In this document: positions 1,308 to 61,970 of the stretch, one piece after another
Layout of the letters: every line of letters starts with the position of its first letter
How positions within the stretch are numbered: the stretch's first letter is position 1
Assembly (NCBI RefSeq): GCF_024298765.1
Contig: NZ_CP101210.1
DNA length: 64,000 nucleotides
DNA from: Escherichia coli
GTDB lineage: Bacteria > Pseudomonadota > Gammaproteobacteria > Enterobacterales > Enterobacteriaceae
Direction: 5' to 3' (one strand)
Program-made: the position numbers and the translations under genes
Notes under the pieces: model-generated
What the model was told of the DNA's origin: nothing
The model's database searches: none
The model's input: the letters and a program-made list of their open reading frames with translations, nothing else

Positions 1308-2319
1308 TTTTTTCCTTAAGCACTTTCAGATAATCCTGCACAGACTTGTTATGACTGGCAAGATTGGTATTAAACGTGTGACCACCTTTACCATCGGCCA
1401 CAAAATAGAGATACGGCGTTTTTGCCGGATGCGCAGCAGCCTTCAGCGAATCCGCCCCCGGCGTCGCTATCGCACCTGGCGGCAAACCGGTAATGGTATA
1501 GGTGTTATACGCTGTCGGCGTTTCCAGGTCTGCACGAGAAAGTTTGCCATTATAACGCTCTCCCATCCCGTAAATCACGGTTGGGTCGGTCTGCAGGCGC
1601 ATACCAATGCGTAAACGGTTGATAAATACCGAGGCAACCTGATCGCGTTCGCTGGAAACGGCGGTTTCTTTTTCGATAATTGATGCCATCGTCACCAACT
1701 GGTTTTTATCTTTATAAGGCAGACCGTCCGCACGCCCTTCCCAGGCGCTATCGACCGCTTTCACCATTTTCTTGTGCGCTCGCTTGAGTAACGCGACATC
1801 GGTGGTATTGGCGGTATACATCCAGGTGTCTGGCCAGAACCAACCTTCAATCCACTCCGGGTTTTCCAGTTCAAGTGCCTGCGCTACGGTGGCGTACTTA
1901 TCGTCGCTCAGCGTGTGCTTGATATAGGGGGCCTCACGCAATTGCTTGAGGTAATCGCTCAGACGCATCCCTTCTACCAGTCGCAGAGGGAACTGTGCTT
2001 CTTTACCGCTTTCCAGCAATTTCAGCATCTCGCGCACGGTCATCTGCGGTGTAAAGCGGTAAGTCCCGGCTTTAAAGTGAGAAAGATCCGGTTCGATACG
2101 CAGCAGCCATTGGAAAACCCGTGGGCGATTGATGATCTTATCGGCATAAAGCTGTTCACCGAGCGCCAGACGTCCGGTCCCTGGCTTCAGGGTAAATATC
2201 GTCTCTTCTTTGATAAGTAATTTGCTGTCGGCAAGATGGCGAACCTTCCAGACGCCCACACCAGCGGCGATACCCAGTACCACCAGCAATAACAAGATAA
2301 TCAATAACACTTTTTTCAT
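1297..2319 (-). CDS. mltG: endolytic murein transglycosylase (YceG/MltG)
   Basis: 340-aa ORF with N-terminal TM segment; synteny pabC-mltG-tmk. Confidence 0.9.
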
Positions 2320-2321
2320 GA

Positions 2322-3131
2322 CTAATTCGGGCGCTCACAAAGTGGGGCTAAATATTCATATAACGTTGCTGACGAAAAGGAGACATCGCCACAGGCACGT
2401 ACGGGCATCACTGGCATTAACGCATTACAAATAACCATCTCATCTGCCTGCAACGCCTCCTCCAGCGAGGCTTGCACTTCGACAAGCTGATAAGAGGATT
2501 GTGCCAGCAAACGGATACAGAATTGTCGCATAATGCCGTTAACACCTGCCTGATCCAGTCGCGGCGTATAAACTACGTTGCCCTTCCGCCAGAACAAATT
2601 AGCCGCACAGCATTCCGTAACCCACCCTTCGCTGTCAAGGACCAGCGCCTCATCAGCGTTTGTCTGCTCAAGATGAGAGCGGATCAATACTTGCTCAAGC
2701 CGATTAAGATGTTTAATACCTGCAAGATGAGGATTGCGCCCCAGCCGCACCGGGCTTAGCGCCAACGTCATCCCCTCGTTACGCAAACGGTCGTAATGTG
2801 CGGGATAAACCGTAACGGAGAGAATCCGCGTTGCCGGTCCGCTGTTCAATGTGCTGTATCCTCGCCCGCCACTACCGCGACTGATCACCACTTTCAGCAC
2901 ACCATTTTGCTGTTCTGCTGCCAGCGTTTTCATCTCTAGTTCAAGCTGAGGCCAGAAGTCACAGGAAATCATCAACCGCTGACAAGCATCCTGTAGTCGC
3001 TGGATATGCGCCGATAACAAACTGACTTTACCGTCGATAACTCTGGCGGTGGTAAAACAACCATCACCAAACTGCGTTGCCCGATCGCTTACTGCCAGCG
3101 ATTCCTGCTTATGACCGTTAATTAAGAACAT
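2322..3131 (-). CDS. pabC: aminodeoxychorismate lyase
   Basis: 269-aa ORF starting [28 protein letters not shown]; synteny. Confidence 0.9.
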
Positions 3132-3199
3132 ACCGGCTCCTTATCAGAGAATTGTTAGTGTGGCAGCATGTTCACTACGGAACAAGTCGGAATAAAAGC

Positions 3200-3905
3200 T
3201 AATAAATATCCTCCGGCATAGCCGGAGGTTTTTCAAATGCGCCTATAAGGCTCTCTTACCAGCCGCGCCCTAACAGGCGCACACGATCTGACATTTGCAT
3301 CCAACTTCGTTACTTACGGCCCGTAAACGGGCTGCCCGGATAGGGAATCGATAACTGCTCTCCCATTTTATCCTCTTCAAGCTGGTGCTTTATGTAATCC
3401 TGTATCTTCGCCGTGTTCTTACCCACCGTATCGACGTAGTACCCTCTGCACCAGAACTCTCTGTTCCTGTATTTGAATTTCAAATCACCAAACTGCTCGT
3501 AAAGCATCAGACTGCTTTTCCCTTTCAGATATCCCATAAAGCCGGATACACTCATTTTGGGCGGGATCTCCACAAGCATATGGATATGATCTGCACAGCA
3601 TTCAGCTTCAAGAATCCGTACGCTTTTCCACTCACACAGCTTTCTCAAAATACTGCCTATTGCTCTACGCTTCTCTCTGTAGAACACTTGTCTTCGGTAT
3701 TTTGGCGCAAAAACTATGTGATATTTACAGTTCCATCGGGTGTGCGCTAAGCTCTTTTCGTTCCCCATTGGGACCCCCTTTTGATTTCTTGTTTGACACT
3801 TGCAGTTGCCAGACCGCAAGGTGTTTTAACAAATCAAAAGGGGTTTTAATAACTGGCTCAAAGCTGAAAGCTTTCCGGAACCCCCAGCCTAGCTGGGGGT
3901 TTTCT
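3200..3905 (-). mobile_element. IS200-family insertion sequence (~0.7 kb); ends approximate
   Basis: Single Y1/HuH transposase gene plus a perfect hairpin CCCCCAGC-ctag-GCTGGGGG (~3871-3889) upstream of tnpA, as in IS200; sits in what should be a short pabC-fabF spacer. Confidence 0.75.
3310..3768 (-). CDS. tnpA: IS200 transposase TnpA (IS200/IS605 family, Y1 HuH)
   Basis: 152 aa from MGNEKSLAHTRWNCKYHIVFAPKYRR, with HuH motif ADHIHMLV and a catalytic Tyr region; track ORF trimmed to the internal Met. Confidence 0.9.
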   Translation of the reverse strand: MGNEKSLAHTRWNCKYHIVFAPKYRRQVFYREKRRAIGSILRKLCEWKSVRILEAECCADHIHMLVEIPPKMSVSGFMGYLKGKSSLMLYEQFGDLKFKYRNREFWCRGYYVDTVGKNTAKIQDYIKHQLEEDKMGEQLSIPYPGSPFTGRK

Positions 3906-3914
3906 GTGCACAAG

Positions 3915-3940
3915 AAAAAAGGCCCGCAAGCGGACCTTTT
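3915..3940 (-). terminator. Rho-independent terminator downstream of fabF
   Basis: GC hairpin GGCCCGCAAGCGGACC flanked by an A-run and a T-run, just 3' of the fabF stop. Confidence 0.6.
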
Positions 3941-3961
3941 ATAAGGGTGGGAAATGACAAC

Positions 3962-5233
<1,272 letters not shown>

Positions 5234-5257
5234 CTAGTGGGACAAAAAGATAAAACT

Positions 5258-5279
5258 CAGGCGGTCGAACGACCGCCTG
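5258..5279 (-). terminator. hairpin between acpP and fabF (partial terminator/attenuator)
   Basis: Perfect palindrome CAGGCGGTCG-aa-CGACCGCCTG downstream of the acpP stop. Confidence 0.55.
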
Positions 5280-5290
5280 GAGATGTTCAC

Positions 5291-5527
5291 TTACGCCTGG
5301 TGGCCGTTGATGTAATCAATGGCAGCCTGAACGGTGGTGATTTTCTCAGCTTCTTCGTCCGGAATCTCAGTATCAAACTCTTCTTCCAGAGCCATTACCA
5401 GCTCAACGGTGTCAAGAGAATCCGCGCCCAGGTCTTCAACGAAAGAAGCATTGTTGGTAACTTCTTCCTGCTTAACGCCCAGCTGTTCGCCGATAATTTT
5501 CTTAACGCGTTCTTCGATAGTGCTCAT
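5291..5527 (-). CDS. acpP: acyl carrier protein
   Basis: 78 aa [18 protein letters not shown]...[16 protein letters not shown] with the phosphopantetheine Ser motif. Confidence 0.97.
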
Positions 5528-16093: not shown

Positions 16094-16878
<785 letters not shown>

Positions 16879-42468: not shown

Positions 42469-42654
42469 ATGTCACCCTGTGAAAATGACACCCCTATAAA
42501 CTGGAAACGAAACCTGATCGTCGCCTGGCTAGGCTGTTTTCTTACCGGTGCCGCCTTCAGCCTGGTAATGCCCTTCTTACCCCTCTACGTTGAGCAGCTT
42601 GGCGTTACCGGCCACTCCGCCCTGAATATGTGGTCCGGTATTGTCTTCAGTATA
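42469..42654 (+). pseudogene. mdtG: mdtG 5' fragment (codons 1-62), truncated by the insertion
   Basis: [62 protein letters not shown], then out-of-context MGP-stop; the rest of the MFS protein resumes at ~46958. Confidence 0.85.
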
Positions 42655-42689
42655 ATGGGTCCCTAAACACATCATTTTAGGTATTGAAT

Positions 42690-44219
42690 ATGAGACGGGC
42701 AATCAGCTACATCAGATTTTCAAGTGAACGACAACTAAAAGGGGACTCTGTACGCAGACAATCTAAGCTGGTCACTGACTGGCTTGATAAGAACCCTGAG
42801 TTTTACTTGGATTCATCCTTGAGCTTTAAAGATTTGGGGAAAAGTGCTTTTAGTGGTAAGCACTTGAAAGGTGGCTTAGGTGACTTTTTAACCGCTATCG
42901 AGAAAGGGCTTGTTAAAGCTGGTGATACACTACTAATCGAGAGTTTAGACCGTCTCTCACGTCAGGATATTGATATTGCTTCTGAGCTATTACGTCGTAT
43001 CTTAAGGGCTGGTGTAGATATAGTCACACTGAGCGATGGTGAACATTACACACGAGAAAGTTTAAAAGACCCGTTATCCCTGATTAAAAGCATTCTGATA
43101 ATGCAGCGGGCGCATGAGGAAAGTCTGAGGAAGTCTGAGCGTGTCCAAGCTGCATGGAACCGTAAAAAAGAACTCATCTCCGAAGGTATCAAGGTATCTA
43201 GGCGTTGTCCTGCATGGTTAAGGCTGAATGATGACCGTCGAACATTCACTATCATCCCCGATAAAGTGGAAGTTGTTAAACGAGCATTTGACCTGAGATT
43301 ACAGGGTTTAAGCTTTTGGGCTATCACCAGAACTTTAAACGATGAAGGCCACTTGTCATTGAATCAATACACACCTAAACAAAAGGGATGGTCTGATACT
43401 GCTGTAAAGAAACTACTCAGAAATCGTGCTGTGATTGGATGTTTCACACCTGCTGGACGTGAAGAAGTTCAGGGTTACTACCCCGCAATAATCAGTGAGT
43501 CACTATTCTATCGAGTACAGCAACTGAACACAGGGCAATATGGTAGGGCTTCTGTATCAAGTAATCCGCTATCAGTCAACTTGTTCAGGGGTATCATCAA
43601 ATGTTCTGAGTGTGGGGCTACTATTGTTCTTGGTGGATATGCCTTAAAACGTTTTGGGATGTACAGATGCCCTAATCGTTCAGCTAACAGGTGTAGTGCA
43701 AAGGCTATCAGTCGTAAGCAAACGGATACAACTATCCTTTACATGCTCGCATTATGCGACCGTTTTGAAACTGAAAATACTGACACTATTGATAGCCTTA
43801 AATTACAGCGTGAAGATTTGCAGCGTAAAATCTCAAAAATGGCAGAACTCGCTATTGAACTCGATGACATGACAATTATCACAGAGAAATTACGTGATAT
43901 GAAGAATGCGCTATCAAAACTCAATCATGATATCGAAGAGGAAACAAAGCGGATAAAGGCCATCACAACTGGAAGCCTCAAAGATATTGACAGGACAACA
44001 AAGGAAGGGATGATAGAGACACAGCTACTTATCAAGGGCGTACTCAAAGAAATAGTTATAGATGCCGCTAAACGTCGCTGTAAAGTGACTTTTCACAACG
44101 GTAAGGTAATTGACCTACCTATAACAGAAAACCCCTCAGAGGACGTTACAGAGGCCATACAGTCGCTTTCTGAAGTCACTGAGAGGGGTTTAATAGATGT
44201 TGATGTAGTAGCGATTTAG
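42690..44219 (+). CDS. large serine recombinase (integrase)
   Basis: 509 aa from ATG 42690 (track begins 6 nt earlier at TTG): N-terminal resolvase domain with catalytic YIRFSSERQ, recombinase domain, Cys-rich zinc ribbon CSECG...CPNRSANRC, C-terminal coiled coil. Confidence 0.88.
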   Translation: MRRAISYIRFSSERQLKGDSVRRQSKLVTDWLDKNPEFYLDSSLSFKDLGKSAFSGKHLKGGLGDFLTAIEKGLVKAGDTLLIESLDRLSRQDIDIASELLRRILRAGVDIVTLSDGEHYTRESLKDPLSLIKSILIMQRAHEESLRKSERVQAAWNRKKELISEGIKVSRRCPAWLRLNDDRRTFTIIPDKVEVVKRAFDLRLQGLSFWAITRTLNDEGHLSLNQYTPKQKGWSDTAVKKLLRNRAVIGCFTPAGREEVQGYYPAIISESLFYRVQQLNTGQYGRASVSSNPLSVNLFRGIIKCSECGATIVLGGYALKRFGMYRCPNRSANRCSAKAISRKQTDTTILYMLALCDRFETENTDTIDSLKLQREDLQRKISKMAELAIELDDMTIITEKLRDMKNALSKLNHDIEEETKRIKAITTGSLKDIDRTTKEGMIETQLLIKGVLKEIVIDAAKRRCKVTFHNGKVIDLPITENPSEDVTEAIQSLSEVTERGLIDVDVVAI

Positions 44220-45380
44220 TATCTCTTATTAGGATTCACTGAGTACTTTTTAAGCTTTGAAGCTACCCGACCAGCGTTACTGTTAGCATTGGTGAGGTTG
44301 GTTTTTTCAGCTTCTTCACAAAAAAGCTTCAGAGGTCTTCTTAACCATCCGCTAAGCAGGAGAGAGGGTGGTACATGAGAAAGAACCCTCACTTCTAAAA
44401 AGATTTTTTAGCTATTTTGCTTAAAACCATATCAAAAGATACATTTTATTGATTCAGGTCAAAGACAAAAGCATTGACAAAATGGTAAAATTGTTCACAT
44501 GACCTTACTTAACAGACTTTTTAAGAGCTTTTGAGAAGCTTGTTGAACAGACACTCTTTCTGGAGTGTTGTCTTTTACTTAAGAGGTTTGTTTAGATAAC
44601 TCTCAAGGCATCTCTTAAGAATCACTGTTAAGGTGATACTCTCCCTTCGGGTTATATCGTATCTCTTCTCCCGTTAGACAGTTTTTCCTAGCAACTTCAT
44701 AGTTATCTGTCAAGTGCCTTTGAAGATTCCATCAAGACCTCTGAATCTGACCTGATATAGATGCTGTGAAGGCATATTCTCTAGGTCTGTGTAGCTTACT
44801 TAGTGGGAAGAGAGGGATATAGTGACCATAGGGGAACCCCTCCTGTTAAAAAGACTACTTAGAAGTCTGAGACTTTAGTAAAATCTGTGAATATAGCTTC
44901 TCAGACGCTCTGTAACGCATTCTAAGCGATTTTACCACCTTATTTTAAGGTGGGTGGTACATCCCTATAGGTTACCCTAAAAATGGGGTTAAAACTCGCT
45001 ACAGAGCTTTCTATGAGGCTTGGTAGAGTTGCATAAATTTTACACAACACTTATTCAGCTTCTAAATTTTTTTATAAAAAATCGTAGTAACCCCTCTACA
45101 TTCCCCTTCACCGATAATCTTCAAAAATATCTATCACAGGTCTATACCTGCTAAGTACCCGTCACTACGCCTAAGTGGTCCCCTTTGCAAAATTTTAAAA
45201 TATCTATTGACTTTTTATGTGAACTGTTATAAAGACCGCTCCATCTCTTAGGCATACCGTTATAGCATACTAAAAAGGTATAGCTAACCCCCTGTAAAAA
45301 CCATACCGATTAGCCTTGTAAAACACTTTATCGGTACATTATACTCAACTCATCAAATGAGTAAGGCAAATGAGTATATT

Positions 45381-45926
45381 ATGGCTAACATTGGTTATAT
45401 CCGAGTTTCATCAATCCAGCAGATTACAGACCGTCAACTTGAAGGGGTCGTACTGGATAAGATATTTACTGATAAAGCATCTGGGAAGAATACAGACCGT
45501 CCACAACTAAAGGCTATGCTCGATTATGTTCGTGAAGGTGATGTTATCCATGTACACGACTTGTCACGTTTAGGGCGCTCTACCGTGGATGTATTAACGC
45601 TGGTGGATAAACTTTCACAGAAAGGTATCAAGGTTCACTTTCACAAAGAAGGTCTGATAACTGGTGACGATAACCCCACGTCTAAGATGATTCTCACAAT
45701 CTTTTCAGCAGTGGCTGAAGCTGAACGTAAAATGATGCTTGAGCGTCAACGAGAAGGCTATGAAGCTGCTAAAGCTGCTGGTCGTGTAGTTGGAAGGGGT
45801 AACGGTAAAGCGGTTGACAGAGAAGGTATTAAAGCTGCTCTTGCTGCTGGTGGTTCAATCGCTAAAGTAGCCGCTCAATTCAACGTTGCCAAGTCAACTG
45901 TACAGCGTATTAAAGCTGAAGATTAA
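45381..45926 (+). CDS. small serine recombinase, resolvase/invertase family
   Basis: ~181 aa from MANIGYIRVSS (catalytic Ser), IFTDKASG, LSRLGRS, SAVAEAERK, C-terminal HTH; the track ORF starts 8 codons earlier at 45357. Confidence 0.85.
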   Translation: MANIGYIRVSSIQQITDRQLEGVVLDKIFTDKASGKNTDRPQLKAMLDYVREGDVIHVHDLSRLGRSTVDVLTLVDKLSQKGIKVHFHKEGLITGDDNPTSKMILTIFSAVAEAERKMMLERQREGYEAAKAAGRVVGRGNGKAVDREGIKAALAAGGSIAKVAAQFNVAKSTVQRIKAED

Positions 45927-45939
45927 GTCAGGAAATACA

Positions 45940-46623
45940 TTAGATTTTTCTTCCAAATAAACTTGGGAGATTCTTACGGTTTCTTGCTTGCATCATTATT
46001 TCTGGGCTAACAAGTTTTTTTAATTCGCTTCTGTACTCATCAATAGAACACTCATCCGCAACAAGTTTTGAAATCAGGTCTTCAATAGACATAACATCTT
46101 GTTGCAGGAAATCAAGTTCACGAGACAAGTGCTTTTTTTGATTCTCTAACTTTCCTATCTCAGCATTTAAGTTATCTACATCTGTCGCCAATTTCTCTGC
46201 CTGAGATTTCAAATTACTTGTATCTTCTTTTTCTCTTTCGATAAGGTTTTTTTGTTTCTCAATCTTCAACTTTGACGTCAGTCTAGCTGACTCTTCAAGA
46301 TTTTCAGCTTCTACTTTTTGTCTTGCTCGCCATGCGGTTGCCTTGATTTGAAGTAGTGTTACAAGGTTGCTGAAGTAAGGGAAAAAGGTCGCCAAAATGA
46401 ACCCTAGCCCTACGGGATAGCATAATGTTTTTAGATAGAAGTCTTCCGTCGATGTGATTTGTTGAATACGAGTAACAACCGAAGCCTCACTAAGACACAT
46501 GATAGCAATGCTTTTCCAGTTAAATCCCACCCATGACAAAATGATGTAGCCCCATAAAGGGTTAGCTACTCGTTCCTTCAACGCCTGCTTAACTGATTCC
46601 GTGATACTTTCTTCACTACTCAC
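45940..46623 (-). CDS. hypothetical membrane-anchored coiled-coil protein (227 aa)
   Basis: Two N-terminal hydrophobic helices (PLWGYIILSWVGFNW..., VGLGFILATFFPYFSNLVTLL), then ~120 aa of charged heptad-like sequence; no family recognised. Confidence 0.65.
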   Translation of the reverse strand: MSSEESITESVKQALKERVANPLWGYIILSWVGFNWKSIAIMCLSEASVVTRIQQITSTEDFYLKTLCYPVGLGFILATFFPYFSNLVTLLQIKATAWRARQKVEAENLEESARLTSKLKIEKQKNLIEREKEDTSNLKSQAEKLATDVDNLNAEIGKLENQKKHLSRELDFLQQDVMSIEDLISKLVADECSIDEYRSELKKLVSPEIMMQARNRKNLPSLFGRKI

Positions 46624-46957
46624 AATTACTGCTCCATAGAAAACTCTGGTTTGAGAAATTTTAATGCGAATCCAATCAGTTAGATAGACCTGTAAATAGC
46701 AATTTTATAGAAGTCGAGAGAGGGATGACTAACACCCTGCATAGTTTCCTGAAAAGAGACTTCGCATATTATCTATATATTTCAATAAGTTATGCTAAAA
46801 AGGAACTATACCAATACTGCATAGATTCTGCGTAAAACTGCTTGGATACTTGGAAATCCACCATTAAATTGCATAGTCATTCACCTGATAAAGCCTGTTA
46901 TTAACAGGTGATAGGATTCGGATGTTCTCATAGTGTATTTAGGGAATTAATATCAGC

Positions 46958-48001
46958 ATTACATTTTTATTTTCGGCCATCGCCTCACCGTTTTGGGGTG
47001 GACTCGCCGACCGTAAAGGCCGAAAACTCATGCTATTACGCTCTGCCCTCGGCATGGGCATCGTGATGGTGTTGATGGGACTGGCACAAAATATCTGGCA
47101 GTTTTTGATCCTGCGGGCGCTTCTTGGGTTACTTGGCGGATTTGTCCCCAACGCTAATGCTCTTATCGCCACACAAGTACCGCGTAATAAAAGCGGCTGG
47201 GCGCTGGGTACGCTCTCCACAGGCGGCGTTAGTGGTGCGTTGCTCGGCCCAATGGCTGGCGGCCTGCTCGCCGATAGCTACGGCTTACGTCCGGTATTCT
47301 TTATTACCGCCAGTGTGCTCATACTCTGCTTTTTCGTCACCCTGTTCTGCATCAGAGAAAAATTCCAGCCGGTCAGCAAAAAAGAGATGCTGCACATGCG
47401 GGAAGTGGTGACATCACTTAAAAACCCGAAACTGGTACTCAGCCTGTTTGTCACCACGTTAATCATCCAGGTGGCGACAGGCTCAATTGCCCCCATTCTG
47501 ACGCTGTATGTCCGCGAACTGGCGGGTAACGTCAGTAACGTCGCCTTTATCAGTGGCATGATCGCCTCGGTGCCAGGCGTGGCGGCTCTGCTAAGCGCAC
47601 CACGACTCGGCAAACTTGGCGATCGAATCGGACCCGAAAAGATCCTGATTACAGCGCTGATCTTTTCTGTACTGCTGTTGATCCCAATGTCTTACGTTCA
47701 GACGCCATTGCAACTTGGGATTTTACGTTTTTTGCTCGGTGCCGCCGATGGTGCACTACTCCCCGCCGTACAGACACTGTTGGTTTACAACTCGAGCAAC
47801 CAGATCGCCGGGCGTATCTTCAGCTATAACCAATCGTTTCGTGATATTGGCAACGTTACCGGACCATTGATGGGAGCAGCGATTTCAGCGAACTACGGTT
47901 TCAGAGCGGTATTTCTCGTCACCGCTGGCGTCGTGTTATTCAACGCAGTCTATTCATGGAACAGTCTACGTCGTCGTCGAATACCCCAGGTATCGAACTG
48001 A
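46958..48001 (+). pseudogene. mdtG: mdtG 3' fragment (codons ~63-408), separated from its start
   Basis: Frame resumes ...[35 protein letters not shown]... to the native stop; the track shows only the internal-Met ORF 47030-48001. Confidence 0.85.
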
Positions 48002-54487: not shown

Positions 54488-55969
54488 TTATAATAACCAT
54501 TCCACGGGCAATATCGACGCCAGTCTGACCATAACCCGCTTCCAGAAACTGGTGGCGGGTTCTTTTTTGAGAATAATCTCTTTCTTTGCATGACGATCAA
54601 CCCAGTTGATCCGTCCCCACCTGTCCAGACGGAGCTGCCAGGCCGCATCATACTGGCTCTGAATAAAGCGTTTATCAATTAACTGTGCCAACGTTTCGCT
54701 CTCTATCACGAAGCCCATTTCAGTATTGAGCAATGTCGAACGTGGATCGAAATTGAAAGAGCCGATAAACACCGTTTTACCATCGATGCTAAAGGTTTTA
54801 GCATGCAAGCTGGCACCGGAATTACCGGTTATACCGCGATCGTGTAACGTACTACTTTGTTCACGCGTCGGCTTGAGTTCATATAATTCCACGCCATAGC
54901 GGAGCAATTTTTTGCGCCAGCGCGCGTATCCGGCATGGACGACAGCAACATCGTTAGCGGCAAGAGAATTGGTTAGGATCGCAATCTTTACCCCTTTTCT
55001 CACCATCCGTAAGAGTTGCGCCACACCTGCGCGTGTCGGTACAAAATAGGAAGAGATAATATCGATGCGTTCACTGGGTGAGCCCATGATATCGAACAGG
55101 CGCTGCGGTAACAGTGAATGCCGTTTTGCCTTGCCTTCCCCTTTCGCCGGATCATCACTTAATAAACGTGTTTTCGCCCAGATAAGCGGCAACGTTCCAT
55201 CAACCAGATGATTTATAAACGGGCTGGATTCCATTTTGCGTAAATAACGATGCGTCATGGCATCGTTGTGCCAGGATGCTGGTAACTCGATGCGATCCGC
55301 CATTTCACCTTCCGGGACATCCAGCACCTGCTGTAGGGGTGAAACCGATTTGCAATACCAGTAGCGGGCGAAATCATCGGCAACGTCCTCTACAACTGGT
55401 CCTATTGCCATGACATCTAAATCCGAAAAAAGTGGCTCTTCCCCTGCACCAAAATAGGCATCACCAATATTTCGCCCCCCTACCAGGGTAACCACGCCAT
55501 CGACAGTGAAACTTTTATTGTGCATACGGCGATTGAGACGGGAAAAGTCGGTGATATAACCAAGCGGACGCAGCAAGCGAAACGAGAAAGGATTAAAAAG
55601 CCGGACTTCAATGCGGGGATGACTGTCAAGCAAGCGTAAAATGTCGTCAAGTCCGGGCGTATTGTTGTCATCCAGCAACAAACGGACGCGAACGCCACGC
55701 TTTGCTGCGGCTAACAGGGCGGAAAAGAGTAACCGACCCGACATATCGTCCTGCCAGATGTAATACTGAACATCCAGCGTATGCTCTGCCATTTCGGCCA
55801 GACGGTACCGGGCGGCAAACGCATCCAGACTTTTCTCCAGAGGAAAAAGGCCACACTGACCGGGATGTTGCGAACACAGTGGCAGCACCGCGCTCGCCAG
55901 CCGGGGCAAATCATTCATCTCCTTGTTGAGTAAGGAGTCTTTCGTAGAGGTGGGCGTTTTCTTCATCAT
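54488..55969 (-). CDS. clsC: cardiolipin synthase C (PLD family)
   Basis: ~493 aa with two HxK motifs (RMHNKSF, SLHAKTF); start codon choice uncertain. Confidence 0.85.
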
Positions 55970-56444
55970 AACAGACAAAGTATACCTGTTCGGGTAAAGC
56001 GTGACGGGTAATAAATTCTGAAACGGTTTTTACTGCGATTTCAGCCGCTGCCGCACGAGGGTAACCATAAACCCCAGTACTGATTGCAGGAAAAGCCACT
56101 GACGTATAGCTGTTTGCCGCCACCAGTCGTAGGCTATTGAGATAGGCATCCTGCAAAAGCTGGTCTTCGTTTTGTTCACCACCACGCCAGACTGGCCCGA
56201 CGGTGTGCACTACGGCTTTAGCAGGAAGATCGCCTGCAAGCGTAATAACGGCATGCCCCGTAGGGCAATCGCCCTGCTGCTGCCTGACTTTTAAACAGGC
56301 ATCCAACAGGGCCGGACCCGCTGCGCGATGAATGGCCCCATCGACGCCGCCGCCTCCCATTAATGACGGATTAGCCGCATTCACAATCACATCAACGGCC
56401 AGTTTGGTAATATCACCCTGCACAACATGAATACGCGTTTTCAT
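55911..56444 (-). CDS. ymdB: macrodomain protein, O-acetyl-ADP-ribose deacetylase
   Basis: 177 aa [25 protein letters not shown]. Confidence 0.92.
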
Positions 56445-56538
56445 AACGCCTCCTTACACCTTCTTGTTTCTTAAGTGTACAGCAGGCTTTTTGGTTAAAT
56501 CGCATTTTTCTGCTCAGCAACGTGAGTTGTTCAGAAAC

Positions 56539-56966
<428 letters not shown>

Positions 56967-56969
56967 TAG

Positions 56970-57303
<334 letters not shown>

Positions 57304-57361
57304 ATTCTTCTCCCGAAAAAAAACAGGGCTTGCGCCCTGTTTCTTTAATACAGATGATGTA

Positions 57362-57820
57362 TTAGTACTGATGAGCGGTCGCGTTGTTACCAAAGCCAAC
57401 CTGAGTCACGTTGACGGAGGAGTTAGATGCAGTCTGATCAACTGCAGCACCGTTGCCACCACCGAACTGTTTAACAGTCATTTCAGAATTTTTGCCGTTC
57501 CACTGATCAAGAGTGGCGCTGTTACCGAAGCCACGTTGGGTCAGATCGATTGAGCTGTCATCTGAGCCCTGACCAACATCTGCACCATTACCACCGCCAT
57601 GTTGGGTAATAGTCAAGTCAGAGTTACGGGCATCAGCTTGCAGAGCAAGTGCAGAGTTACCGCCACCGTACTGGTAAATGTTCAGCTCTGAATTTGGGCC
57701 GCTATTATTACCGCCACCACCGTGGTTGCCGCCACCGCCGCCGTACTGAGGAACAACACCTGCCAGAGCGCTACCGGAGAATACGATTGCTGCAATTGCT
57801 GCTACTTTTAAAAGTTTCAT
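57362..57820 (-). CDS. csgA: major curlin subunit
   Basis: 152 aa with signal peptide and five imperfect S-x5-Q-x-G-x-G-N-x-A repeats. Confidence 0.95.
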   Translation of the reverse strand: MKLLKVAAIAAIVFSGSALAGVVPQYGGGGGNHGGGGNNSGPNSELNIYQYGGGNSALALQADARNSDLTITQHGGGNGADVGQGSDDSSIDLTQRGFGNSATLDQWNGKNSEMTVKQFGGGNGAAVDQTASNSSVNVTQVGFGNNATAHQY

Positions 57821-57860
57821 GTAAAACCCCCATCGGATTGATTTAAAAGTCGAATGGAAA

Positions 57861-58316
57861 TTAACGTTGTGTCACGCGAATAGCCATTTGCGACTGTCTC
57901 TGCACTACAATTGCCGTTTTTTGAGTACCATACTGTGTAATATTTGCTTTATTACCCGAACCTTTCTGGATAATCATCGCAGTATTACCATAAGCACCTT
58001 GCGAAATACTGGCATCGTTGGCACTGCCCGCCTGATCAATATATGCAAGGTTATAATCTCCTGTCTGGTCAATCTTTGCCCGGTTGCTACTACCTTCTTG
58101 CGCAACAACCGCCAAAAGTTTTGAGCCTCCCTGCCGTAACTGAGCACTATTATTAGTCCCAGCTTGACCAATTATGGCTGCCTGATTAAATGAAGACTTA
58201 CTCAATTCATTTACCGCGAAGTTATATTCTGAATTAGCTAAATCATAACCTGCTGCGGCTGCAATCCCAGGCGCACCCAGTATTGTTAACATCATAAATA
58301 ACAATTTGTTTTTCAT
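57861..58316 (-). CDS. csgB: minor curlin/nucleator
   Basis: 151 aa from MKNKLLFMMLTILGAPGIAAA; track ORF trimmed. Confidence 0.93.
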   Translation of the reverse strand: MKNKLLFMMLTILGAPGIAAAAGYDLANSEYNFAVNELSKSSFNQAAIIGQAGTNNSAQLRQGGSKLLAVVAQEGSSNRAKIDQTGDYNLAYIDQAGSANDASISQGAYGNTAMIIQKGSGNKANITQYGTQKTAIVVQRQSQMAIRVTQR

Positions 58317-59069
58317 GTTGTCACCCTGGACCTGGTCGTACATTTAAGAAATTAAATCATTTCAACTTGGTTGTTAACGCAACCTGTATTTTGTTAACGC
58401 TGCGTTACGATGGAAAGTATGTCTGCGGAAATATTTTTAATAACTCACCCGCGCGTTGTATTTTTCTTTTTTTGTTCATACCAAAGTATTAAAACTCACG
58501 TAAATACGCTGTTATCTACGCAAAAAATATTTTGTTTTCTTTTAAATCTCCGTTTTCCGCTATCAAAAATCACCAGACAATCATTCTTCTTGCCCGTCGC
58601 TGATTGCTGCGATATGTCTTGCGCACAAGCCGTGACAAACCTCGTCTTTTTGCAGTAAAAAATTGTCCACGGAGGTGTGGAGAAAAAACAAGAACGTTTT
58701 ACATGACGAAAGGACTACACCGAAATATTTTTTATATGCATTATTAGTAAGTTAGCACCATTTGTATGATTTTTTAAAATTGTGCAATAAAAACCAAATG
58801 TACAACTTTTCTATCATTTCTAAACTTAATAAAACCTTAAGATTAACATTTTAATATAACGAGTTACATTTAGTTACATGTTTAACACTTGATTTAAGAT
58901 TTGTAATGGCTAGATTGAAATCAGATGTAATCCATTAGTTTTATATTTTACCCATTTAGGGCTGATTTATTACTACACACAGCAGTGCAACATCTGTCAG
59001 TACTTCTGGTGCTTCTATTTTAGAGGCAGCTGTCAGGTGTGCGATCAATAAAAAAAGCGGGGTTTCATC
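58317..59069. promoter_or_regulatory. csgB-csgD divergent intergenic regulatory region
   Basis: ~750-bp AT-rich ORF-poor spacer between the divergent csgBAC and csgDEFG operons; a known regulatory hub for curli expression. Confidence 0.8.
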
Positions 59070-59720
<651 letters not shown>

Positions 59721-59724
59721 AGCC

Positions 59725-60114
59725 ATGAAACGTTATTTACGCTGGATTGTGGCGGCAGAATTTCTGTTCGCCGCAGGGAATCTTCACGCCGTTGAGGTAG
59801 AAGTCCCGGGATTGTTAACTGACCATACTGTTTCATCTATTGGCCATGATTTTTACCGAGCCTTTAGTGATAAATGGGAAAGTGACTATACGGGTAACTT
59901 AACGATTAATGAAAGGCCCAGTGCACGATGGGGAAGCTGGATCACAATAACGGTGAATCAGGACGTTATTTTCCAGACTTTTTTATTTCCGTTGAAAAGA
60001 GACTTCGAGAAAACTGTCGTCTTTGCACTGATTCAAACTGAAGAAGCACTAAATCGTCGCCAGATAAACCAAGCGTTATTAAGTACGGGCGATTTGGCGC
60101 ATGATGAATTTTAA
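59725..60114 (+). CDS. csgE: curli secretion specificity factor
   Basis: 129 aa. Confidence 0.93.
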
Positions 60115-60138
60115 ATAATAAATTGTTCGGAGGCTGCA

Positions 60139-60555
60139 ATGCGTGTCAAACATGCAGTAGTTCTACTCATGCTTATTTCGCCATTAAGTTGGGCTGGAAC
60201 CATGACTTTCCAGTTCCGTAATCCAAACTTTGGTGGTAACCCAAATAATGGCGCTTTTTTGTTAAATAGCGCTCAGGCCCAAAACTCTTATAAAGATCCG
60301 AGCTATAACGATGACTTTGGTATTGAAACGCCCTCGGCGTTAGATAACTTTACTCAGGCCATCCAGTCACAAATTTTGGGTGGGCTACTGTCGAATATTA
60401 ATACCGGTAAACCGGGCCGCATGGTGACCAACGATTATATTGTTGATATTGCTAACCGCGATGGTCAATTGCAGTTGAACGTGACAGATCGTAAAACCGG
60501 ACAAACCTCGACCATCCAGGTTTCGGGTTTACAAAATAACTCAACCGATTTTTAA
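60139..60555 (+). CDS. csgF: curli assembly protein
   Basis: 138 aa. Confidence 0.93.
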
Positions 60556-60581
60556 GCCCCAGCTTCATAAGGAAAATAATC

Positions 60582-61415
60582 ATGCAGCGCTTATTTCTTT
60601 TGGTTGCCGTCATGTTACTGAGCGGATGCTTAACCGCCCCGCCTAAAGAAGCCGCCAGACCGACATTAATGCCTCGTGCTCAGAGCTACAAAGATTTGAC
60701 CCATCTGCCAGCGCCGACGGGTAAGATCTTTGTTTCGGTATACAACATTCAGGACGAAACCGGGCAATTTAAACCCTACCCGGCAAGTAACTTCTCCACT
60801 GCTGTTCCGCAAAGCGCCACGGCAATGCTGGTCACGGCATTGAAAGATTCTCGCTGGTTTATACCGCTGGAGCGCCAAGGCTTACAAAACCTGCTTAACG
60901 AGCGCAAGATTATTCGTGCGGCACAAGAAAACGGCACGGTTGCCATTAATAACCGAATCCCGCTGCAATCTTTAACGGCGGCAAATATCATGGTTGAAGG
61001 TTCAATTATCGGTTATGAAAGCAACGTTAAATCGGGCGGGGTTGGGGCAAGATATTTTGGGATCGGTGCAGACACGCAATACCAGCTTGATCAGATTGCC
61101 GTGAACCTGCGCGTCGTCAATGTGAGTACCGGCGAGATCCTCTCCTCGGTGAACACCAGTAAGACGATACTTTCCTATGAAGTTCAGGCGGGGGTCTTCC
61201 GCTTTATTGACTACCAGCGCTTGCTGGAAGGGGAAGTAGGTTACACCTCGAACGAACCCGTTATGCTGTGCCTGATGTCGGCTATCGAAACAGGCGTCAT
61301 TTTCCTGATTAATGATGGTATCGACCGCGGTCTTTGGGATTTGCAAAATAAAGCAGAACGGCAGAATGACATTCTGGTGAAATACCGCCATATGTCGGTT
61401 CCACCGGAATCCTGA
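60582..61415 (+). CDS. csgG: curli secretion channel lipoprotein
   Basis: 277 aa with lipobox LLSGC. Confidence 0.95.
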   Translation: MQRLFLLVAVMLLSGCLTAPPKEAARPTLMPRAQSYKDLTHLPAPTGKIFVSVYNIQDETGQFKPYPASNFSTAVPQSATAMLVTALKDSRWFIPLERQGLQNLLNERKIIRAAQENGTVAINNRIPLQSLTAANIMVEGSIIGYESNVKSGGVGARYFGIGADTQYQLDQIAVNLRVVNVSTGEILSSVNTSKTILSYEVQAGVFRFIDYQRLLEGEVGYTSNEPVMLCLMSAIETGVIFLINDGIDRGLWDLQNKAERQNDILVKYRHMSVPPES

Positions 61416-61434
61416 TAGATAAAAATGCCGGAAT

Positions 61435-61461
61435 TATCATCCGGCATTTTACTGTTTAAGC
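61435..61461 (+). terminator. csgG Rho-independent terminator
   Basis: ATGCCGGA-attatca-TCCGGCAT followed by TTTT; a second hairpin AGCGTGAG...CTCACGCT follows. Confidence 0.7.
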
Positions 61462-61478
61462 GAAAGCGTGAGTGCCCC

Positions 61479-61970
61479 TCACGCTTTATTTTTGATTTGC
61501 TGCTCACGGTGAGCGGTCTTCGTACTACGCGCCGCCAGCCACAAGCCGCTGTTTTTCATTGCGTAACCAAATATCAACCCGAGCGCCAGCGAAGGTAACA
61601 CCAGTTTCCAGTCACCCTGCCCGGCAAACGTCGCGCATGCGCCTATAAACGTTCCCGGAACAAATGAAAGCAGCAGCTGTTTGGCCTGAATACACATCAG
61701 AAACGCGACAATACCGGTTATGACATAACCGAGAATTTCCAGATGTGGTGCCAGTGCACTACCGTAAATAATGACCATCGCCCACACCACGCCACTAAGC
61801 AGGGTTGCAGCGGAGATCGCCAGCCCTTTCAGCCCACCTTGCGGGCAGGCAAAGTAGGCCGTACAGCCCAGGAAGCCCGCCCAGCTTAGTAAGCCCAGGG
61901 AAACAGCCACCCATCCCCAGATACCGGAGAGAATGCCTGTTGTGATTGCAATAGAGAGAAGTATGTTCAT
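61479..61970 (-). CDS. ycdZ: inner membrane protein YcdZ (DUF1097)
   Basis: 163 aa from MNILLSIAITTGILSGIWGW; track ORF trimmed. Confidence 0.82.
   Translation of the reverse strand: MNILLSIAITTGILSGIWGWVAVSLGLLSWAGFLGCTAYFACPQGGLKGLAISAATLLSGVVWAMVIIYGSALAPHLEILGYVITGIVAFLMCIQAKQLLLSFVPGTFIGACATFAGQGDWKLVLPSLALGLIFGYAMKNSGLWLAARSTKTAHREQQIKNKA

Follow-up and report, generated by a model that had tools for sequence, protein, structure and literature searches.

A canonical, K-12-like curli control region with two lineage-restricted substitutions in an Escherichia coli genome

The DNA between the divergent genes csgB and csgD in the E. coli genome studied here is the curli control region in its canonical form, and with a probability of about 95% it works as it does in K-12, its particular allele being a normal variant of the lineage that carries it. 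The region is an already known, textbook feature, and this copy of it is structurally undamaged. Few promoters in E. coli are as heavily regulated as the curli control region, where a change of one base can be enough to switch biofilm behaviour; therefore, the copy was worth checking for a known or obvious regulatory lesion, and we established the identity, coordinates, and integrity of its elements and the frequencies of its alleles. Because all mapped elements are unchanged, temperature- and stationary-phase-dependent regulation of the K-12 type would be the default expectation at the level of the spacer DNA, and nothing found here would predict an altered curli phenotype. The result is a clean negative, together with two lineage SNPs that are available for work on biofilm variation in this lineage. 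Should this strain differ in curli production, the cause would more likely lie elsewhere in the genome, for example, in rpoS, mlrA, ompR, or the c-di-GMP enzymes.

The spacer, its flanking genes, and the surrounding window

We refer to the whole 64-kb stretch of DNA that was analysed as the window. The ATG of csgB occupies the complement of 58314–58316 on the minus strand, and the ATG of csgD begins at 59070 on the plus strand; therefore, the spacer is exactly 58317–59069, or 753 bp, and the published length of the E. coli curli spacer is 754 bp. The GC content of the spacer was 34.1%, against 50.0% for the whole window, and only 0.5% of the 753-bp windows within the 64 kb matched its AT-richness. 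The AT-richest 753-bp stretch of the window (32.8% GC) begins at 58281 and thus nearly coincides with the spacer, in which the 160 bp closest to csgD had a GC content of 21.7%. According to the annotation of strain 104, the spacer ranks second among the CDS-free gaps of the 64 kb, the median gap being 63 bp. The window shared 99.99% identity with strain 104 over 62.7 kb, and no base differed between the two in the csg locus (55900–61500).

The preliminary description, made from the sequence alone, had seen about 750 bp of AT-rich DNA between the divergent curli operons, had named it the csgD–csgB spacer, and had considered the csgD coding sequence and operon structure intact. The length and composition given above agree with this account, and its identification as the csgDEFG/csgBAC intergenic control region is supported by the annotated csgB and csgD genes on either side and by an end-to-end alignment with K-12 MG1655 at 99.1% identity. 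The intactness of the coding sequences extends to all seven genes: csgB, csgA, csgC, csgD, csgE, csgF, and csgG are full length and without internal stops. With csgBAC on the minus strand of the window and csgDEFG on its plus strand, the divergent layout is that of K-12 MG1655, in which the gene order ycdZ-csgGFED / csgBAC-ymdA-ymdB-clsC is the same as here, and the entire 6-kb csg locus shared 98.55% identity with K-12. The CsgB, CsgE, CsgF, and CsgG proteins are the K-12 versions; CsgA differs from that of K-12 by one additional glycine and T61A, and CsgC by T3A and V24M. The CsgD allele of the window is also the annotated CsgD in most of the other sampled genomes (WP_000481500.1). With respect to CsgD, it is K-12 that carries the unusual allele, with S19 and S110 (codons 19 and 110, in the region of 59124 and 59397 of the window); at the base concerned in codon 19, K-12 alone departs from the window and all 14 other aligned E. 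coli genomes.

Table 1. Features of the curli control region, its flanking genes, and the lpxL–mdtG island, in window coordinates; numbers in parentheses are relative to the csgD start site.
Feature	Position	Strand	Basis or remarks
Large serine recombinase, 511 aa	42684–44219	+	Intact; Resolvase, Recombinase, and Zn_ribbon_recom domains
Resolvase, 189 aa	45357–45926	+	In lpxL–mdtG island
Coiled-coil hypothetical protein	45940–46623	−	In lpxL–mdtG island
csgB (curli nucleator), 151 aa	57861–58316	−	ORF; protein identical to K-12 CsgB; WP_000791650.1 in strain 104
csgB–csgD intergenic control region	58317–59069		753 bp, 34% GC
Putative csgB −10, ATACTT	58415–58420	−	Preceded by C, sigma-S type; predicted from sequence alone
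CsgD box CGGGTGAGTTA	58441–58451	−	Exact match to CGGGKGAGNKA; identical in K-12; block score 0.89
Common polymorphism	58473 (−449)		T here, A in K-12
Lineage-restricted SNP	58496 (−426)		T in the window, against C in K-12 and 13 further E. coli genomes of the sample
A-run length polymorphism	58522–58527 (about −400)		A6 here, A7 in K-12
Common polymorphism	58570 (−352)		T here, G in K-12
Lineage-restricted SNP	58580 (−342)		A in the window, against G in K-12 and 13 further E. coli genomes of the sample
Common polymorphism	58755 (−167)		G here, T in K-12
MlrA palindrome AAAATTGTGCA-N12-TGTACAACTTT	58776–58809 (−146 to −113)		Two mismatches to what we take to be the MlrA consensus
Common polymorphism	58842 (−80)		A here, G in K-12
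OmpR/RstA site GTTACATTTAGTTACA	58863–58878 (−59 to −44)	+	Exact match to OmpR-type direct repeat and RstA box consensus
csgD core promoter	58889–58916	+	−35 TTGATT (58889–58894), 16-nt spacer, −10 TAGATT (58911–58916)
csgD 5′ untranslated region, 148 nt	58922–59069	+	100% identical to K-12
csgD, 216 aa	59070–59720	+	ORF; WP_000481500.1 allele, as in strain 104; S19P and S110A relative to K-12

Several other features were observed in the window. A low-GC island (37–45% GC) occupies 42500–47000, between lpxL and mdtG, and contains the three genes listed first in Table 1. In strain 104, the large recombinase gene is split by ISEc52, which is lacking in the window, and mdtG of strain 104 is annotated without its N-terminus, suggesting that insertion of the island truncated mdtG. 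The window's largest CDS-free gap, of about 1.1 kb and exceeding the csg spacer, also lies in this island (44220–45356); it contained no ORF of more than 58 aa and no Rfam match. Between rne and flgL, a TacA-like antitoxin gene (97 aa, PF08681) and a GNAT acetyltransferase gene (164 aa) lie on the plus strand at 16094–16878, and the pair looks like a TacAT-type toxin–antitoxin module. Strain 104 has an IS200C transposase between pabC and fabF, which corresponds by coordinate offset to approximately 3310–3768 of the window, and an Rfam match to STnc490 on the minus strand (3778–3901) adjoins this position (region of about 3310–3900).

Control elements of the spacer and their conservation

The csgD start site was placed at 58922 by mapping the primers of a published −335 to +67 fragment on the sequence, where the reverse primer ends at 58988 (+67). 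This position agrees with the Rfam ES056 family (RF02752), whose match covers 58923–59014 (119.7 bits against a threshold of 43, E-value 8.5e−23). The leader that begins here is described in the literature as the target of known repressing small RNAs. The csgD core promoter is held in a 30-bp block (58887–58916) that was 0.96 conserved across genera. For the sites upstream of it, a Salmonella-focused review places the activating OmpR site D1 at about −51 and further OmpR sites as far out as −267, and MlrA is reported to bind between the IHF and OmpR sites, which fits the position of the 33–34 bp palindrome at 58776–58809. The published footprints retrieved are −201 to +28 for H-NS, −31 to +54 for RcsB, and −308 to −192 for RcdA, and in Salmonella, H-NS covers −69 to −339. 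A generic sigma-70 promoter and terminator scan was uninformative: it returned two promoter-like matches where chance alone would give 3.5, and the genuine but weak csgD promoter was not among them.

On the csgB side, CGGGTGAGTTA was the sole zero-mismatch match in the spacer to CGGGKGAGNKA, which we take to be the CsgD box consensus of the Salmonella literature. A sigma-S-type −10 (C-ATACTT) follows immediately downstream of the box, and the block containing it was 0.90 conserved across the 14 Enterobacteriaceae sequences. From this −10, csgB transcription would start near 58408, giving a predicted 5′ untranslated region of about 92 nt. The csgB promoter is entered in Table 1 as putative because our literature search found no published coordinate for the csgB start site.

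To compare the spacer across species, representative genomes were scanned with the first 22 nt of csgD. The scan returned the locus from Escherichia albertii, Escherichia whittamii, Salmonella arizonae, Salmonella diarizonae, several Citrobacter species, and Trabulsiella, as well as from four other divergent Escherichia records, two of which are labelled E. coli. In all 13 sequences from Escherichia, Salmonella, Citrobacter, and Trabulsiella, the spacer length stayed within 733–770 bp. When conservation was expressed as the share of the 14 aligned sequences agreeing with the window, the peaks coincided with the named elements: the csgB ribosome-binding region (0.94), the csgB promoter and CsgD box (0.89–0.90), the MlrA box (0.83–0.90), the −35 and −10 of csgD (0.96), and part of the leader (0.98). 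The troughs (0.47–0.56) lay at 58557–58616 and 58677–58736. The length of the spacer is thus held but its central third is only about 50% conserved, suggesting that promoter-to-promoter spacing or geometry is under constraint.

The binding and regulatory roles of these elements in the present allele are proposed here on the strength of the literature. The csgD promoter would be a weak, RpoS-dependent promoter of the sigma-S/sigma-70 type, activated from the OmpR/RstA box (−59 to −44) and the MlrA palindrome (−146 to −113) and by IHF. H-NS, CpxR, RcsB, and RcdA, spread over the AT-rich DNA, would silence csgD, the repressors (H-NS, CpxR, RcsB, and others) presumably competing over a curved, AT-rich stretch. 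Once transcribed, the 148-nt csgD leader would be a landing pad for Hfq-dependent small RNAs, and CsgD would bind the CGGGTGAGTTA box by the csgB promoter and thereby switch csgBAC on.

Differences from K-12 and the two lineage-restricted substitutions

The preliminary description had left two matters to be followed up, an alignment with the K-12 csg region and the chance of a strain-specific change in the spacer. The alignment has now been made against the K-12 MG1655 spacer (NC_000913.3, 1103197–1103950, 754 bp), which has the same flanking genes in the same orientation. At the 99.1% full-length identity given above, the two spacers are collinear, without rearrangement, and differ by six substitutions and a single 1-base indel, which is a change in the length of an A run; the collinear alignment revealed no IS insertion, rearrangement, or deletion beyond this one A. 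Strain-specific change is likewise present, in the form of two lineage-restricted SNPs, at 58496 and 58580, both outside the mapped sites.

To place each difference within the species, 15 other E. coli spacers, picked evenly down the similarity ranking, were aligned with that of the window. Five of the seven differences proved to be widespread E. coli alleles, which at most sites were commoner in the sample than the K-12 state. Of the 16 aligned E. coli sequences (the window counted), 11 carried T at 58473, as did every other Escherichia sequence examined, and T at 58570 was the majority state both in the sampled E. coli and in the other Escherichia sequences. The A run at 58522–58527 varied from five to eight bases among the 16 sequences, with A6 also occurring in O157:H7, an ST131 strain, and an O91 strain. 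G at 58755, directly upstream of the MlrA box in an area where the literature puts an IHF site, was present in 10 of the 16, and at 58842, where A, G, and T all occur in E. coli, A was the commonest and was also found in Salmonella and Citrobacter. These last two variants (−167 and −80) fall within the H-NS/OmpR/IHF zone, and both are present across much of the species.

The two remaining differences, 58496T and 58580A, were seen in no genome of the 15-genome sample other than strain 104, which matches the window exactly. When the spacer was used as a megablast query, 5,371 of the 5,426 complete E. coli genomes gave a match, and in at least 30 of them it was 100% identical. When 61-mers centred on each private SNP were used as queries against the complete genomes, the exact 61-mer was present in 84 of the 5,160 genomes with a match for 58496T and in 88 of 5,106 for 58580A. 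In other words, both private SNPs occur in approximately 85 of the 5,426 complete genomes (about 1.6%); the ranking of full-length matches, in which identity had already fallen to 99.2% some 90 places down, agrees with these counts. Among the exact matches listed, many were chicken, turkey, or avian-pathogenic isolates, including O78:H4 strains; we take avian-pathogenic O78:H4 isolates to be typically ST117.

At the other end of the range, some 97 of these 5,426 genomes had no match over at least 80% of the spacer, and two altered loci were seen in individual strains. In E. coli S1-CAM-01-A, most of the spacer, the whole of csgD, and the 5′ part of csgE have given way to ISKpn26 (positions 1990–5323 of locus L016), and IS903B lies between csgA and csgC, so that the curli locus is wrecked. 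In the urine strain E. coli 43905, a 10-bp deletion removes −60 to −51 of the csgD promoter (58862–58871 in window coordinates); this takes the first half of the OmpR/RstA box and should abolish OmpR-dependent activation of csgD.

The substitutions at 58496 and 58580 are most likely neutral lineage markers. Both columns vary within Escherichia, and the bases of the window recur in several other species of the genus: T at 58496 is shared with E. albertii, E. whittamii, and three other divergent Escherichia sequences, and A at 58580 with E. whittamii and further members of the genus. Such variation marks the two sites as labile in evolution, and neutrality is the best reading of the SNPs. The competing explanation is that C>T at 58496 and G>A at 58580 are functional, either by raising the local AT content or by altering a distal H-NS, IHF, CpxR, CRP, or Cra site, and we regard it as very unlikely. 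Its point of departure is that large effects of single-base changes in this spacer are documented in the literature, and a 2026 preprint has linked semi-constitutive biofilm morphotypes among clinical isolates to polymorphisms in the spacer. Position also speaks for 58496 to some degree, which is about 88 bp upstream of the predicted csgB start site, 5 nt past the conserved, genus-spanning block CCAAAGTATTAA, and within the unspecified spacer of a weak CpxR-like match (two mismatches). However, this match was no better than several others scattered through the AT-rich spacer, and it was the sole overlap with either SNP in consensus scans for CRP, Cra, IHF, CpxR, Fur, ArcA, FNR, MqsA, and RcdA; it does not amount to evidence for a CpxR site. 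Moreover, −342 and −426 lie outside the H-NS, RcsB, RcdA, OmpR, and MlrA intervals and outside the Salmonella H-NS interval of −69 to −339, and the surroundings of 58580, within the first of the two conservation troughs, have the lowest conservation of any 60-bp stretch in the spacer (0.49–0.50). Both SNPs fall in the middle of the spacer, where conservation is weak. Both changes are GC-to-AT transitions, the commonest mutational class. If they were functional after all, csgD and/or csgBA expression, and thereby biofilm behaviour, would be changed in the lineage, an outcome to which we give little chance. The same slender odds apply to the idea of a regulatory allele in which the −426/−342 pair retunes curli, for example, through H-NS or IHF occupancy or through DNA curvature between the promoters. 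Such an allele would contribute to the environmental persistence or pathogenicity of the lineage, and the joint fixation of 58496T and 58580A in about 85 complete genomes, with many of the listed exact matches coming from chickens, turkeys, or avian-pathogenic strains, could be cited in its favour; yet co-occurrence in one clonal lineage is also what neutral hitch-hiking predicts.

A different explanation of the spacer, that it hides a small protein gene or an independent small RNA, is extremely improbable and was rejected. Mechanical ORFs of 30–82 aa can be drawn in it, such as that at 58410–58658 on the plus strand, and Rfam classes 58923–59014 as a small-RNA “gene,” ES056. However, ES056 begins where csgD transcription starts and does not extend beyond the csgD leader; it therefore represents all or part of the 5′ untranslated region and is no gene of its own, and a search of the spacer against Rfam gave no family besides ES056, even at E ≤ 1. 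The 82-aa ORF crosses the least conserved, indel-rich part of the spacer, and RefSeq has no annotated feature under the spacer in any of the genomes listed. The ORFs of the spacer fall in unconserved, indel-rich DNA.

Comparison with known curli control regions

K-12 MG1655 is one of the closest known systems: the csgD core promoter, the OmpR/RstA box, the MlrA palindrome, the CsgD box, and the 148-nt csgD leader are all identical to those of the window. Known constitutive csgD alleles share their promoter with the window and illustrate the principle that one base can turn regulated curli expression into constitutive expression. In O157:H7 ATCC 43895, an A-to-T change in the −10 (TAGAAT on this strand) results in constitutive curli, whereas the window keeps TAGATT. 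In Salmonella, spacer and point mutants of the agfD promoter, including a spacer lengthened from 16 to 17 nt, are constitutive, whereas the spacer in the window is 16 nt. Inspection of the −10 and of the spacer length thus showed that these known promoter-up mutations are absent from the window. At greater distance, identity to the window was 83–92% for other Escherichia species and 53–67% outside Escherichia, with the central third poorly alignable; nevertheless, the spacers of Salmonella, Citrobacter, Trabulsiella, and the other Escherichia share with it the divergent layout, the length, and the conserved blocks at the core promoters, the MlrA box, and the leader.
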